A stretch of DNA of 61,197 bases, filler included, from Porpidia crustulata (lineage: Eukaryota): NCBI GenBank assembly GCA_964255105.1. It is 12 parts of 12 records of this genome, joined end to end, with 100 filler letters (N's around TTAATTAATTAA, not from the genome) between each part and the next. Parts side by side here need not be neighbours in the genome. Positions count along the whole stretch, not along the records: positions 46,025 to 51,023 come from CAXUWE010001939.1; 11 more parts are not named here. The stretch is one strand, 5' to 3'. Under the pieces are notes generated by a model, which did no database searches, had not been told where the DNA came from, and saw nothing but the letters and a program-made list of their open reading frames with translations. The position numbers and the translations under genes were made by a program. Shown here piece by piece: positions 45,253 to 51,633 of the stretch (its first letter is position 1; each line of letters starts with the position of its first letter).

Positions 45253-45924
45253 ATGGCCGACGAAGCAAAAGCCCAAACCGAACTCAAAGACTTCCAAAAC
45301 ATCTTCTCCCTTGATGGCAAAGTCGCCGTCGTAACCGGTGGCTCCCGCGGCCTCGGCCTCCACGCCGCATCCGGGTCCGTCCTTCTCCCTCTATCCAATC
45401 TCTCCACCTAACACAATCCGCAACAGTCTCCTCCAAGCCGGCTGCGCCAAAGTCTACATCACCTCACGCAAAGCGCTCGCGTGCGAGCAAGCCTGCGCGG
45501 CCCTGAACGCGCTCCCGCACAAACGCCCCGGCGCCGTCGCCATCCCCGTGCCCGCCGACAGCGCCAAGATCGCGGACGTGGAGGCGCTGGTCCGGGAAGT
45601 GGCGAAGACGACGGAGCATGTGGATATTCTTTTCGCGAACGCGGGGGCGACGTGGGGAGAGCGGTTCGACACGCATCCGGACGCGGCGTTTGCCAAGGTG
45701 ATGGATTTGAATGTCAAGAGTGTTTTTAATACGATTAGGCTGTGGGTTTCCTGATCTTAGGCTATCGTGCCTTCTGTGCAAGAAAGACGCGGTTCGCTGA
45801 CGGCTATAAACATAGATTCGCTCCCCTCCTCCAAAAACGCGCCACCATCGACGACCCCTCCCGCGTCATCGTCACCGCCTCCATCGCCGGTCTCGGCGTC
45901 GGCTCCCTCGGCGAAAACGCAACC
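45253..45924 (+). CDS. Short-chain dehydrogenase/reductase (RhlG/FabG-like), 3'-truncated
   Basis: FSLDGKVAVVTGGSRGLG, VDILFANAGATWG, KVMDLNVKSVF; two introns. Confidence 0.9.
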
Positions 45925-46137
45925 NNNNNNNNNNNNNNNNNNNNNNNNNNNNNNNNNNNNNNNNNNNNTTAATTAATTAANNNNNNNNNNNNNNNNNNNN
46001 NNNNNNNNNNNNNNNNNNNNNNNNATCCTGCCAGGATACAGATATGGTGGGGTTGCTGTGAGGAATAGGCGCCTGGGCATAAGCTAGGATGTGATCCTTC
46101 GTCGTTGCCATGATCAGACTCGAGAGAGAATCCGTGA

Positions 46138-47294
46138 ATGCCTTTTCTCACTTTGTTGTCCGTACCTCGACACGTCGCGAGTCTACGAATTACATGTATA
46201 CAATAGCGGTACCGATATGGCGGTCATTGCTGCGGACATTCCTACAGATGTGTTGATTGATCTCAACTCCGCCACAATAACAGCCGGAGGCACTACAGAC
46301 CTCACTGGATTTAATGATCCGCGAAACATCATCAACCGCACCGATGGGATTGACGGTGCAGGAAAGACCTGGCTATTAGCAAACAACACTGCCGGATACT
46401 GGGGAGCAGAGCTCACTCGAGTGGGCTCGCCTTCTCTTCTCCGTTTGTCAAATACCAAGCAAGATGGGCGAGGCACCAAAGCTTTCGCATTCTCTTGGTC
46501 TAGTGCTACTAGCAATGGAAATCCCCCAGGGCTTGCGAATCTCAGCTACGCGGATCCGCAGACAGGAAAGGCGGCGTTCTGCGCTGATCAGTGCCCGCTG
46601 GCAAGCTCCTCGAACAAATCATATCAGGACTTCCTCTTCGTGAATATCATCAAGCTCAATAATATTCGACTGAATGTGACCCAGTGGTACGGTGCAGGCG
46701 GGGGTTTGGATGGCTTGCTGCTCGCCGAGAACCGTAAGGGATCCTGGATCTTCCTGGAACGCTTGATGCTAATGTTGGCCATCGTTCGCAGCTTTACCAT
46801 TCGTGAGTTCTTCTGCCTCGAGTCCGTCCTCGACAACTTCGAACAGTCCTACCGATTCAATCTCGTCGGTAGCCTTCGGTACGAAGACCGATCAATCGAG
46901 CTCGAGCACCGCAGTGGCTGCCACAACCACTGTCACTCCTCCACCTTCTCCGTCGAACGAGCTTTCGTCCGGTTCGAAAGCAGGCATAGCTATAGGCGCT
47001 ATCATTTTTGCGCTTCTCCTCCTGGCCGCTCTTTGGCTTTGGCTTCGGAGGTATCGCAAGGCCCATCGGGACCCAGCTGTTGCGTCTCGACGTAGAGACC
47101 GCCAGTCTGGAATGAGCCGCCAGGAGCTAGACGCGAACACCACGAGAATTGAGAAAGAAGCCGGTGTTCAGGCTCGAGAGATGGATGCTGATGCTCCACT
47201 TGCCGAGATAGACAACGGTGACCAAGCTCATGAGATCGGAGGTGATCATTGGAAACGGGAAATGGACGGTCAAAGCCACGCGCGCGATTTGTAG
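46138..47294 (+). CDS. Single-pass membrane protein with a stand-alone Rax2 'second domain' ectodomain, Ser/Thr stalk, TM and 6x9-aa tail repeats (intron 46734-46791; 5' exon 46138-46157 tentative, otherwise start 46217)
   Basis: GFNDPRNII...DGAGKTWLL.NNT.GYW...LRL.NT.QDGRGTK.F...NLSY.DP.TG...C...CPL....YQDFLFVN......WYGAGGGLDG matches the Rax2 ectodomain as I recall it. LSSGSKAGIAIGA TM follows. Confidence 0.8.
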
Positions 47295-48521
47295 AAAGGT
47301 CAAATGGGATCTCCCCGATGATACAGCCTTTTCGAGAACTCGGCCGAGATGGGAAGATTCAAAGGATGATTCAATCACGCGTTGATGATCTTATTGGTCC
47401 TACATTTTGGAAACCCTGGGTTTACGCAATAGTAGTGGAGCAACAGAGGTAAAGCATCGTTTTGGGTACTCATTCATCTTGTGACTTCCAATCGGACAAC
47501 ACAGGCAAGGCATCGTATTGGGTTTCTGACTTATCTCGTGATTCCCAATCCGACAAGACTTGACTCTCCCTTCACACAGATTGAGTTTCAGGATTTGCAA
47601 TCCCAGCACTCGCTAAAACCTCATTCCCATCACGGTCTCCTGGAAATACAACACATACAGACATGTCGTCATGGCCAGTCAGGCTCGAATAAGTTCCTTC
47701 TATTTGCTATCCATTTGTCCTGAGACGCCTTAGATAGGAAGTTGCGATACTCTACACATGGCTTACGAAAAAGGTTATACAGCTATTGACGAGACAAAAG
47801 ATGGTAAATGTATGTCTAGTCAGCTTGGTGCTTGGAATAAGGGCGGACACTACGGAGGTCGGACTCAAGCAAGCGCGAAACTAAAATTGAGCGGCTTGGC
47901 ATGATAAGGGACATATTTTTTGGGTGGACACCGGTGGATAGGACCTGAAGATTCATGACATCTCTCAGGCAGGGGTGTACTACGCCATTCATGCCAAGCC
48001 GCTTAAATTTAGTTTCACGCTCGCAAGGCTTTAAAATCCGACCTCCGTACCTGACTGGTTCTCTCTTACGAAACTGCCAAGCCTGTCTTGGCAAGTGTGT
48101 CAGACTAGGGGAATTTGCAACTCTCCGTGAGGCTCAAATCTTCGCCAAGCACCAATCACGTCGTTAGCTCCTCAATTCTTATCACGTTGCAGGTTACCTC
48201 GGTCCCAGTAACGACCTCACACAAGGTGGCTATGCCCATTTTTCGCATTGACTTGTCTGCAGATTTGATCCTTCGAGCAAGCGGTTATTATCGCGTTCGT
48301 TGGTGGTAGCCATGGGTCACACTCGAAAAATAGTATGCAATGAGAAGCTGTCTGCAAGCGCCGACCGGTCAGGTTGGCATAGTTATCGAGTATACTCAGG
48401 TGGGCTATTTAGATTGTCGTCAAGTATTGATAATATTGAGAATCCTCGAGTAATTAGGTTGCCGCTGGAAAGGTTCTCCATCTGAGCAACAGCTATCCAA
48501 GGAAATATCCCTTCCCTCACC

Positions 48522-49563
48522 ATGCGTCTCCTCGCAACAATAATCATCATATTCCACCCTTCCTTGGCCATCGCACAGTACTTCTACGCCACGGACGTCG
48601 CCAGCAAAGCCGGTCCCTGGAAAGTCCAACCCAGCGCTCAATCATTCAGCGGGTTCCTCGCCGCCAATTACACCAGCGATGGCGATGTGTCGGTGACCTT
48701 CGACACCTCGCCGATCGACCATGATGGGAACTACTCTGTTAGCATGTACACGCCGGGGTGTATCCAAACGGGCGACTGCAACCGCCGAGGCACAGTTAGC
48801 ATCGTAGGAAACTATACGAGCGACGGGGCGTCTGCCTCCACACGCATTGCTCAGACGAATTCCTTTGATAAGTATGATCAGATTTACCATGGGGGCGTCA
48901 ATGCAAGTGGAGGGGGCTTCAAGTCCTCGGTCAAGCTAGCGTCGATTCCTGGTCCAGGCGGCGTTGTCGTTGCGCAGGCGATCAGATTTCAGTTGCTGGC
49001 GGCTTATCAGTGAGAAACATTAATCTTGGATGATGGTTGTTTCGAGACTAATAACAGCACGTAGGAGCTCTGGAAGTGCAGGGACAGGAACGGCAGGTCC
49101 CTCCCAATCTTCTCAGCGCGGGACTGCCACTACTCAGACTGGAACAAGTAACGCTACGCCAACAATCCCCAACGTCACGGTGACGGCCTCCGCGGACGCT
49201 CATTCTAAGGGCTTAAACGAAGGCGCCAAGATCGGCATCGGAGTCGGTGTCTCCCTAGGCGTGATTCTCTGTTTGGTCGTCGCATTGCTAATTTACTTAC
49301 GTGTCCAACGCAAGCAAAAGGGTAGAGCTGGGAAAGGCTCGCCGGTTGATGGGAGCGGAGCAGAAGATGAGTCGGGGTTAGCCAAGGCGGAGCTGCAGGG
49401 GGAGTCAACGCATACGGAAATGCTTGATACGTCAGTGCACGCCGAATTGCCACAAGGCCCATTGCATACGGAGCTGCCGGGAATTTCGTCACCTGTGGAG
49501 CTGCCAGGTAAATTGGTGCATCAGCAGCTACCAGGAGGCACCATGTATGAGCGCACCACCTAG
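48522..49563 (+). CDS. Single-pass membrane protein with signal peptide, stand-alone Rax2 'third domain' ectodomain, stalk, TM and 6x9-aa tail repeats (intron 49010-49064)
   Basis: GPW.V.PS.QS...L.A...GNYSV.MYTPGCIQ...C.RRG.V...QTN.FDKYDQIY.G...F..SV.L...VVAQ.I.F.L; GLNEGAKIGIGVGV TM. Confidence 0.85.
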
Positions 49564-50125
49564 AGAATTCCCTTACATAGCAGCAGTCCTGCAGTCCCGC
49601 AAACCCCTGGAAGAGCCCCTGGATAAGAGAGCCCAATGCACCCAACAACTGCCATTTGGGGTTTTGAACGAGCTATGAGACTTGCTCGACTCGCAAGGAA
49701 CGGCATCAAGACTACTTGGTGAAGACTATCTCCTCGCTTACGGCTGGAATGACCGAGTCATATTGACAAATTTTCGATTATTTCGTTCAAGCGGAGACTC
49801 GAGTGGGTCAAAGATACGAGCGATAGACGAGTCAAATTCGGCCCAAATTTGCCACTGAGCTCCTCCGGTACGACTCAGCCGGTTGCCCAACCAGGCGGGC
49901 TGGTCCCTGAAGGCACACGGACCCAGCCCGCCATCAGACTCAGTGAGGTCGGGTTTGGTCGGTCCGGGGTTGGAAACCATTGTCACCGACCCAATCGGTC
50001 GCGCAGCTAATAAAACGAAGTTGAAGCAGCTTACGACTAAAGTTCCAAACCATAGATTCAAGGCTGTCAAATTTCATATTCACTTTACTGTGCGGCCCTC
50101 GACAGGATCAATCCACCGAAACGCT

Positions 50126-51010
50126 TTAGATACCCCTCCCTCCATCAACTTCCAAATTCACGCCGTTGATAAATTTCCCCTCATCCGAAGAGAGGAAAAG
50201 CAGCGTATTCGCGACATCCATCGGCTCCGTCAACCGTCCCAAAGGCACATTGCTGATGAAACTCGCTCTGTTCTCAGGAGTATCCGGAACGCCCGCAAAC
50301 GACTCGAAACTAGACCACCACCATGAGTCTCTGGCTCCCGTAAAAATAAAAATTTTAGCACTCTCGAAAATACCTCAACTTACAGTCCAGTCCCACTCAA
50401 AAGCGGGCACACCGAATTCACCCGGATCTGATGCGGTCCATACTCCGCGGCCAACCCCTTTGTAGCATTTGCTACCGCGCCTTTGGAAGCGTTGTACCAC
50501 ACCAGCCCCGGGCGCGGTCTCATGGCCCCGATACTCGCGACGTTGACGATGGCGCCGCCGCGTTGCTGCTCGATCAGTTTCGGGACGACGACGGCGACGG
50601 AATGGAAGATTGATTTCACGTTGACGCGGAAACAGCGGTCGAATTCGTCTTCGGTTACGTCTAGCGTCGGCTGTGTTGCAGAGAAAAGAGATGAGTATCA
50701 CACTCTCCTCCTGCGGATGCAGAACAGTTTGAAAAAGAACTTTCACCACGAAATCAATACCTTATTCCGATAAGTCGTCCCCGCATTATTAACGACCACA
50801 TCGATCCTCCCCCACCGCCTCATTGCCTCCTCCAACGCCGCCTCCCAATCCGATCGCACCGACACATCGACCCGCATCGCAAACATGTTTTCCCCGCCAG
50901 CGCTCGCCGTCTTTTCCGCTCCCGCTGTGTTGATGTCGCATACGAGGACGCTACACCCTTGAGATGCGAATAGCGTTGCGGTTGCGGCGCCGAAGCCGGA
51001 ACCGGCGCCT
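50126..51010 (-). CDS. Short-chain dehydrogenase/reductase (FabG/TsaC-like), 5'-truncated, multi-exon
   Basis: GAGSGFG, IDVVVNNAG, RPRPGLVWYNASKGAV (YxxxK), IRVNSVCP, VPLGRL, NLEVDGGRGI*. Confidence 0.9.
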
Positions 51011-51633
51011 GGAGGGTTGTGGGNNNNNNNNNNNNNNNNNNNNNNNNNNNNNNNNNNNNNNNNNNNNTTAATTAATTAANNNNNNNNNNNNNNNNNNNNN
51101 NNNNNNNNNNNNNNNNNNNNNNNGCGTAAGCGTAGGTGTGGGCGTGATATGCGGTTTTATACATGCGATCATGCTCCGTGATGCGATGGGACATATCTCG
51201 AGAAGAAAGATAGATGGTGATACATTTAATAAATTCAAAAAAGTATCCATCTGAAAATTAATTGAATAACCCGCAACGAGCTTACAAGAAATCATGTTTC
51301 GGTTTCGGGAAGGAGAATCCGAGCGCTGGATGGTATTGGGCATGTGTTGAATTTGGGGTGGGTATGGAGAGATGTATAATAGTAGTATACGGAGTTGTAA
51401 ATGTAAGGTAGGTTTGATATCAATGCGTTCATCTCGCCTTGCTGATCCAAATCAAATCAAGCTAGAATCCACAAGTCCTCGAACTGTGGGTTCCATTTAC
51501 TTGAACCGTAGAAACAGTCATGCAAGTCAAGTCGTGCGGAAAAGAAAGTCTCCAGATCCGGCCGTGTTATCATGAGCGCTGACTCCAGTACATAAGGGCG
51601 ATGGTTTGGATGATCCATGCGCAAAGACAATTC

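Follow-up and report, generated by a model that had tools for sequence, protein, structure and literature searches.

A 61,197-base window from the lichen-forming ascomycete Porpidia crustulata (assembly GCA_964255105.1) carries two adjacent genes, here called gene 1 and gene 2, whose N-terminal heads correspond to successive domains of Rax2, a fungal cortical polarity landmark. The window, by which we mean the whole stretch of DNA analysed, is made of 12 contigs of 4,986-5,024 bp each in descending length, joined by linkers of the form N44-TTAATTAATTAA-N44, so that adjoining pieces of it are not genomic neighbours. The gene pair lies wholly inside one contig of 4,999 bp (window 46025-51023), with both genes on the same strand. 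Gene 1 runs from an ATG at 46217 through exon 1 (to 46733), an intron (46734-46791) and exon 2 (46792-47294) and encodes 339 amino acids (aa), while gene 2 runs from an ATG at 48522 through exon 1 (to 49009), an intron (49010-49064) and exon 2 (49065-49563) and encodes 328 aa. Each consists of a head of about 150-170 aa, a GT-AG intron, a Ser/Thr stalk, one transmembrane (TM) helix and an acidic tail in which short motifs recur. A Logan contig of 3,670 nt, assembled independently from the only public run in which this DNA was found, a DNA run that is probably the source sample, matches positions 46041-49710 with 0 differences, which indicates that the adjacency of the two genes is real and no assembly artefact. 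A first-pass annotation of this DNA had described two tandem same-strand genes of this layout, and the sequence, Pfam, a hydropathy scan and the Logan contig bear that description out; the junctions that it gave, 46733/46792 and 49009/49065, coincide in the DNA sequence with canonical splice sites that keep the frame. The features of the locus are as follows.

46217..46733, plus strand: exon 1 of gene 1, with the start codon and a Rax2_2 head of 172 aa, ending 1 base into a codon (Pfam, AlphaFold2)
46734..46791, plus strand: gene 1 intron, 58 nt, phase 1, GTAAGG...TGCTAAT...CGCAG (sequence)
46792..46982, plus strand: gene 1 Ser/Thr-rich stalk, about 64 aa (translation)
46983..47045, plus strand: gene 1 predicted TM helix GIAIGAIIFALLLLAALWLWL, followed by RRYRK (hydropathy scan, translation)
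47046..47294, plus strand: gene 1 predicted cytoplasmic tail, 82 aa and stop, with E-M/I-D and HEIGG motifs (translation, tail identity to orthologues)
47295..48521: intergenic spacer, 1,227 bp (sequence)
48522..48578, plus strand: gene 2 predicted signal peptide MRLLATIIIIFHPSLAIAQ, with A-x-A ahead of the putative cleavage site (translation, cleavage site read by eye)
48579..49009, plus strand: gene 2 Rax2_3 head, 143 aa, the exon ending 2 bases into a codon (Pfam, AlphaFold2)
49010..49064, plus strand: gene 2 intron, 55 nt, phase 2, GTGAGA...GACTAAT...CGTAG (sequence)
49065..49563, plus strand: gene 2 exon 2, with a Ser/Thr/Gly stalk to 49236, a predicted TM helix IGVGVSLGVILCLVVALLIYL at 49237-49299, an 87-aa tail and stop (hydropathy, translation)

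Exon 1 of gene 1 matched the Pfam family Rax2_2 (E 1.5e-39, 135.9 bits against a cut-off of 27, profile positions 3-146 of 146) and gave no Rax2_3 match, and exon 1 of gene 2 matched Rax2_3 (E 2.5e-32, 112.7 bits against a cut-off of 27, positions 21-160 of 161) and gave no Rax2_2 match. When the window was searched by tblastn with the full-length Rax2 of Lambiella (P0011), residues 224-368 (in gene 1) and 406-544 (in gene 2) were the only parts that matched, and the heads are 44-47% identical to these two segments. Both lines of evidence agree with the proposal in the first-pass annotation that the heads are the consecutive second and third modules of Rax2, in Rax2 order. It had also stated that the Rax2 propellers are missing, and indeed Pfam gave no match to the C-terminal propeller PF12768 in either gene and tblastn found no propeller or other Rax2 part elsewhere in the window. 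Full-length Rax2 combines an N-terminal part, both domains and the propeller in one chain of about 1,200 aa, and neither gene encodes such a chain. Conservation within the heads is nonetheless that of Rax2: gene 1 keeps 27 of the 32 columns that are at least 90% conserved in 134 full-length Rax2 proteins, and gene 2 keeps 23 of 27 such columns (131 full-length rows).

The gene 1 head retains the sequons NRT40, NLS108, NKS133 and NVT153 together with an internal cysteine pair (C122/C126), and the gene 2 head retains N-x-S/T sequons and an internal pair of its own (C80/C86). The predicted signal peptide of gene 2 is matched at 16 of 19 and 12 of 19 positions in two orthologues. Serine and threonine make up a fraction of 0.50 of the 60 aa that follow the gene 1 head and 0.33 of those that follow the gene 2 head, and the TGCTAAT of the gene 1 intron is a branch-like site. 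RVQRKQK follows the TM helix of gene 2, whose tail carries repeated H-x-E-L-P motifs. The cysteine pairs and sequons in both heads and the charged residues after both TM helices fit a topology in which the heads would lie outside the cell and the tails inside, and for gene 1 in particular it is these charges, the kept sequons and the cysteine pair that suggest an exposed head. No Pfam family matched the second exon of either gene above a cut-off. The stalk, helix and tail had been called Mid2-like in the first-pass annotation, which applies to their layout; at the level of the profile, Mid2 (PF04478) scored 17.7 bits on gene 2 exon 2, below the cut-off of 23.2, and gave no match to gene 1 exon 2. 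We also considered whether the two stalk-TM-tail exons are paralogous to each other. BLASTP aligned them at 32% over 100 aa (E 5e-10), but the alignment covers low-complexity stalk and TM helix and the tails alone gave E 0.19, which does not establish paralogy.

The limits of the two genes follow from the reading frames. The gene 1 stop codon and a 1.2-kb spacer separate gene 1 from gene 2, and an in-frame stop stands 36 nt upstream of the gene 2 ATG. A fused transcript was considered and is not favoured: the gene 1 donor is of phase 1, and by manual reading the one AG within codons 1-31 of gene 2 that would preserve the frame (AAA/GCC) is not preceded by a pyrimidine tract. The first-pass annotation had gene 1 begin at 46138, which does not hold, as the ATG there lies in another frame and starts an open reading frame (ORF) of just 22 codons, and the first in-frame ATG is at 46217. 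This short ORF (MPFLTLLSVPRHVASLRITCIQ, then stop; 46138-46206) ends 11 nt before the gene 1 ATG and may be an upstream ORF (uORF) or nothing.

To characterize the heads further, we built AlphaFold2 models from 34-row alignments. The gene 1 head was modelled with a predicted local distance difference test score (pLDDT) of 90.7 and a predicted TM-score (pTM) of 0.87, and the gene 2 head with a pLDDT of 83.0 and a pTM of 0.78. Foldseek returned 209 matches in the PDB at E ≤ 0.001 for the gene 1 model, the best being 7jnb (E 2.8e-6, TM-score 0.62); its neighbours comprise CBM32 (carbohydrate-binding module, CBM) structures, the C2 domains of coagulation factor V and lactadherin, other discoidin domains and 2v72 (E about 3e-6 to 3e-5, TM-score about 0.6). 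The gene 2 model gave 92 matches at E ≤ 0.001; the best was to the xanthan lyase 6f2p (E 3.2e-5, TM-score 0.64), and phloem lectin PP2 and CBM35/16/6/36 were further neighbours. A language-model protein-atlas look-up assigned the gene 1 head to F5/8 type C at 0.96 and the gene 2 head to Golvesin_C at 0.86, the latter to be taken as a lead only. The agreement of Foldseek and the atlas indicates that both heads are carbohydrate-binding-type beta-sandwiches by fold; as modelled, the gene 1 head is discoidin/CBM32-like and the gene 2 head is a Golvesin_C/CBM-like jelly roll, each a predicted lectin-like beta-sandwich. Searches by sequence found no solved structural relative of either head.

Both genes have orthologues in other lichen fungi. 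A word-based search with the gene 2 head, among proteins that exceed the heads in length, gave 96 matches, two of which are small proteins with PF20843 only and the other 94 of which carry PF12768. The named gene 2 orthologues are Q9214_003097 (324 aa, Letrouitia sp. 1 TL-2023, 83% identical) and Q9219_001406 (318 aa, cf. Caloplaca sp. 3 TL-2023, 73% identical). The corresponding search with the gene 1 head gave 27 matches, including five small proteins with PF20842 only, and orthologues were identified as Q9214_003098 (87%), Q9219_001405 (85%) and Q9191_002711 from Dirinaria sp. (64%); in a further word-based search at 181-578 aa, 10 of 31 matches were of the gene 1 type, among them the window's own P0269, and the remaining 21 were RAX2 fragments. 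Searches with the gene 1 head were word-based, and the exhaustive profile search described below used the gene 2 head only. Letrouitia belongs to the Teloschistales and Dirinaria to the Caliciales, both within Lecanoromycetidae, and Letrouitia and cf. Caloplaca (Teloschistales) are the closest named relatives.

The arrangement of the two genes is conserved as well. The first-pass annotation had proposed looking for the pair in related genomes, and there it was found: neighbouring locus tags on common contigs (Q9214_003097/003098 on 5,482 bp and Q9219_001405/001406 on 174,431 bp) place the two genes side by side in two metagenome-assembled genomes (MAGs) of Teloschistales. An NCBI contig of 23,022 bp is the source of an ORF with Rax2_2 (P0291) and of one with Rax2_3 (P0263), and the pair thus probably shares a contig in a fourth genome, that of a Caliciales relative close to Dirinaria. 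In the word-based searches the gene 1 type was seen in Teloschistales and Caliciales only, adjoining gene 2 wherever the contigs allow a check. The gene 1 head is identical at 150/172, 146/172 and 108/166 positions to those of Letrouitia, Caloplaca and Dirinaria, and the tail at 74/82, 68/82 and 46/80; for gene 2, the counts against Letrouitia and Caloplaca are 121/143 and 109/143 in the head and 72/87 and 51/83 in the tail. Conservation of the tails at the level of a folded domain speaks for function.

Gene 2 had been taken in the first-pass annotation for a piece of a RAX2 duplicate, a view that its wider relationships do not support. An exhaustive phmmer search with its head against 1.84 billion representatives gave 139 matches in all, and 10 of these representative clusters show a head, a Ser/Thr stalk, a TM helix and a tail when the short matches are read and scanned for hydropathy: P0002 (the window's own), P0133, P0148, P0154, P0156, P0165, P0168, P0200 (partial), P0204 and P0207. 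All eight of the distant stand-alone clusters tested pass the Rax2_3 cut-off, with 81-125 bits. Two members are named, both as 'hypothetical protein': KAE8443219.1 from a Mollisiaceae/Helotiales species and KAI9707003.1 from Bogoriella megaspora (Trypetheliales, Dothideomycetes). Gene 2 has the layout of this family, namely a signal peptide or N-terminal head, Rax2_3 as the only domain, a stalk, a TM helix and a tail of about 60-90 aa. In a tree of 11 stand-alone proteins, six short N-terminal ORFs and 43 full-length rows, the 17 former fell on one side of a branch with a support of 87, unstarred, in the Shimodaira-Hasegawa-like approximate likelihood ratio test (SH-aLRT). Judged by these sequences, gene 2 is a member of an older and wider family of stand-alone Rax2_3-stalk-TM proteins that groups apart from full-length Rax2 and is already in the databases as hypothetical proteins. 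Heads of the stand-alone relatives known as hypothetical proteins are just 34-49% identical to that of gene 2. In P0165/P0261 and P0168 (Logan and IMG ORF calls) no intron separates head from stalk, and a single frame runs through both and on through the TM helix; in the close relatives P0121 and P0122, as in the window, short ORFs end directly after the head. At least these more distant relatives have no break after the head, which indicates that the gene 2 intron is lineage-specific and provides no evidence of grafting.

For gene 1, the position of the intron points to a different history. Eighteen RAX2 exon-1 ORFs, which comprise the N-terminal part and Rax2_2, end within 35 aa after the motif GGGL.G..L[FL][QE][DNT]. 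The residue that follows the ELFQ[DNT]-type motif is G in all 18 of these ORFs and D in 74 of 78 proteins that continue, and we read the G as read-through of a phase-1 intron that interrupts an Asp codon (G/GT...). At the same place, all six unspliced ORFs of gene 1 orthologues with the usual motif end, P0269 included, read R, the window having C/GTAAGG; a seventh such ORF, P0101, reads S from A/GT, which by manual reading is also phase 1. These read-through residues indicate that the gene 1 intron occupies the same site and phase as the RAX2 domain 2/3 intron, which fits an exon-level origin of gene 1. The end of the gene 1 head coincides precisely with a phase-1 intron found between the two modules in many RAX2 genes, and the mature gene 2 head (YFYATD...) begins where RAX2 exon 2 begins (DIFAYA...), so that both lie at the same RAX2 exon boundary. 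Several RAX2 genes have no domain 2/3 intron (P0277, P0290, P0112 and L001/L002). The last two came from one of two metagenome scans for orthologue DNA, which returned these full-length RAX2 loci only, the other scan having found nothing; L001 and L002 (9314-13065) are 40% identical to Lambiella Rax2 and have one intron, near residue 1063. The proposal that pieces of a RAX2 copy were grafted at an intron boundary therefore stands in part: site and phase agree with an exon-boundary origin for gene 1, whereas in at least some relatives of gene 2 head and stalk form a single ORF, and grafting at an intron is not supported for gene 2.

In phylogenetic trees, the gene 1 clade (10 sequences) was monophyletic, with a support of 100, starred, in one tree and 100/98, starred, in another, and stood on a long stem of 0.97 and 0.53 substitutions per site, respectively. 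The best tree placed it outside all Pezizomycotina RAX2 (82/87), and a grouping with two Lecanoromycete RAX2 was not rejected by the approximately unbiased test (p-AU 0.168).

Cysteines set the two genes apart from Rax2. Among 74 full-length Rax2 proteins with the motif, the domain 2 region has exactly three cysteines in 73, and the domain 3 region has the same number, again in 73. The cysteine beyond the internal pair stands in N-I-x-C-K-T in domain 2 (72 of 74) and in N-E-P-x-C at the start of domain 3 (71 of 74), with both present in 69. This near-constant third cysteine in domain 2, together with the one at the start of domain 3, suggests an inter-domain disulfide. None of 10 gene 1 orthologues keeps the extra cysteine of domain 2, whose place in the window is occupied by the Asn of the sequon NRT. 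The NEPxC segment is missing from gene 2 and from both of its named orthologues, and each head is left with its internal pair only. Full-length Rax2 would then staple domains 2 and 3 together by a disulfide, and the split genes would have dropped the staple.

Our best explanation, which we regard as probable if well short of certain, is that the locus holds two separate, conserved genes for single-pass membrane glycoproteins of about 330 aa with lectin-like, Rax2-paralogous heads. Both heads would be paralogous to the extracellular part of Rax2, cut at the phase-1 inter-domain intron. The head of each protein would stand outside the cell on its Ser/Thr stalk and might bind a glycan of the cell wall or of a foreign surface, and the stalk, the TM helix and the conserved acidic tail of about 85 aa might report to cytoplasmic partners or anchor the protein on them.

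Several observations weigh against this explanation or against parts of it. A signal peptide is absent from gene 1 and from all 11 orthologous models and ORF calls seen, and with the head outside the cell the N-terminal part of gene 1, about 236 residues, would have to cross the membrane with no cleavable signal; gene 1 may encode a signal-anchor (type III) protein whose N-terminal part is exceptionally long, or a small 5' exon may have been missed by every model. The contig starts just 192 nt upstream of the gene 1 ATG, which leaves room for an upstream exon. With respect to glycan binding, to which it is the fold class that points, Golvesin_C (PF25275) scored 21.9 bits on the gene 2 orthologue P0002, below the cut-off of 31.6, F5_F8_type_C (PF00754) gave no match to gene 1 at E ≤ 1, and the fold matches stand at a TM-score of about 0.6 with 9-17% identity. 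In a larger tree of 85 rows, 16 stand-alone and short rows grouped at 86 and P0133 fell elsewhere on a long branch; a single origin of the stand-alone Rax2_3 family thus has moderate support, its branch reaching 86-87, unstarred. Finally, separate transcripts for the two genes are something that we infer from the sequence.

The missing signal peptide could also mean that gene 1 is incomplete at its 5' end: further exons past the edge of the contig would supply a signal peptide or additional parts of Rax2, and the gene would then not encode the small stand-alone protein modelled here. The contig and the Logan contig stop within 16 nt of each other, 176-192 nt before the ATG; ahead of this ATG the frame stays open for 43 codons, and by manual reading phase-1 donors in the uORF at 46138-46206 could formally splice to the AG at 46246-46247. 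These donors are weak (GTCTAC, GTATAC), however, and such a splice would remove a segment that is conserved in the orthologues. Orthologue models on contigs of 174 kb and 20.6 kb begin at the same Met, and all 12 clade sequences, the window's included, have Met there, although ORF callers favour Met. The in-frame upstream stretch is unrelated to Rax2 and unlike the upstream extension of P0267, tblastn with full-length Rax2 matches nothing else in the window, and none of the RAX2 exon-1 ORFs seen is interrupted by an intron at that point. We therefore consider a truncated gene 1 unlikely. That the genes are decaying, functionless leftovers of a partial RAX2 duplication is very improbable: the long stem of the gene 1 clade could be taken as a sign of decay, but in both orders the frames have stayed open and the canonical splice sites, the TM helices and the tails have been preserved, conservation is as high in the tails as in the folded heads, and most of the core residues that are invariant in Rax2 are retained.

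A further alternative, raised in the first-pass annotation, keeps both genes functional and makes their products partners: at the cell surface the two proteins would form a heterodimeric receptor that restores in trans the unit made up by domains 2 and 3 in Rax2. The tandem same-strand Rax2 order is kept in the window, in two Teloschistales MAGs and probably in the Caliciales relative, and the gene 1 type was never seen without evidence of the gene 2 type in the same lineage. The gene 2 family, however, occurs in lineages where word-based searches found no gene 1 type, and each domain has lost its extra cysteine, which, if these cysteines do staple the domains in Rax2, would mean that the staple is gone and argues weakly against pairing; on balance such a receptor seems improbable to us. 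A more specific version, in which the pair is a two-chain surface receptor particular to Teloschistales and Caliciales, derived from a RAX2 copy cut at the inter-domain intron, with heads that re-associate non-covalently, tails that differ and a role as a sensor of wall or photobiont glycans, is more doubtful still. Were it true, a static polarity-landmark module would have been turned into a signalling sensor.

Two separate single-pass proteins, the explanation that we prefer, can be set against systems already described. Like Rax2 (PF12768, PF20842, PF20843), which acts together with Rax1 as a lasting landmark of the cortex, the gene pair carries bona fide Rax2_2 and Rax2_3 domains and shares an intron position with it. 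Unlike Rax2, which is about 1,150-1,250 aa long, it has one domain per protein of about 330 aa, has neither the N-terminal part nor the C-terminal propeller but a stalk, TM helix and tail of its own, and has lost the extra cysteine of each domain. The stand-alone proteins KAE8443219.1 and KAI9707003.1 have the layout of gene 2, and their heads group with that of gene 2 against full-length Rax2; they are not known to have a Rax2_2 gene beside them. Yeast wall stress sensors of the Mid2/Wsc type and signalling mucins expose a head or a Ser/Thr-rich stalk outside the cell and have a single TM helix and a short cytoplasmic tail. Genes 1 and 2 resemble them in layout only, since the Mid2 profile is below its cut-off or unmatched and the heads are unrelated to the WSC domain. 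With CBM32/discoidin domains and with Golvesin_C/xanthan-lyase CBM-like domains the heads share a fold class, but they do not match the sequence profiles of these families. A literature search turned up no paper on this architecture, judged by title, in keeping with the first-pass annotation, which knew of no description of it.

These comparisons bear on Rax2 itself. We know of no function for its large extracellular part. The second and third Rax2 modules can evidently exist alone as heads of small membrane proteins, and the carbohydrate-binding-type folds predicted for both suggest that wall-glycan binding may fix Rax2 at old growth sites; the stand-alone heads would be small constructs on which this idea could be tested. 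An excerpt of one study describes a large region of Rax2 as extracellular and apparently heavily glycosylated (PMC13741952, excerpt). The phase-1 intron common to gene 1 and RAX2 provides a clean fungal case in which an exon boundary served to build a new gene. In the Rax2_3 family, moreover, one named member comes from the Helotiales, cultures of which may be easier to obtain than those of lichen fungi.

The remainder of the contig holds several minor features. Within the spacer, a diverged tandem duplicate lies at 47441-47556 (period 57, 2.1 copies, 78% matches), and an inverted repeat of 36 nt, whose arms (47869-47904 and 47989-48024) are 89% complementary and separated by 84 nt, has the appearance of a small hairpin or of a remnant resembling a miniature inverted-repeat transposable element (MITE). 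Downstream of gene 2, the assembly graph branches at 49646-49713, where three other Logan contigs share just that stretch with loose ends on both sides, and depth falls from 10.4 to 6.7 beyond it; the join of gene 2 to the dehydrogenase that follows may be spurious or may exist in some strains only. This short-chain dehydrogenase (adh_short / adh_short_C2) lies on the minus strand at 50126-51021 in three ORF pieces. Another short-chain dehydrogenase gene, at 45335-45754 on the plus strand, is truncated where the preceding contig ends.

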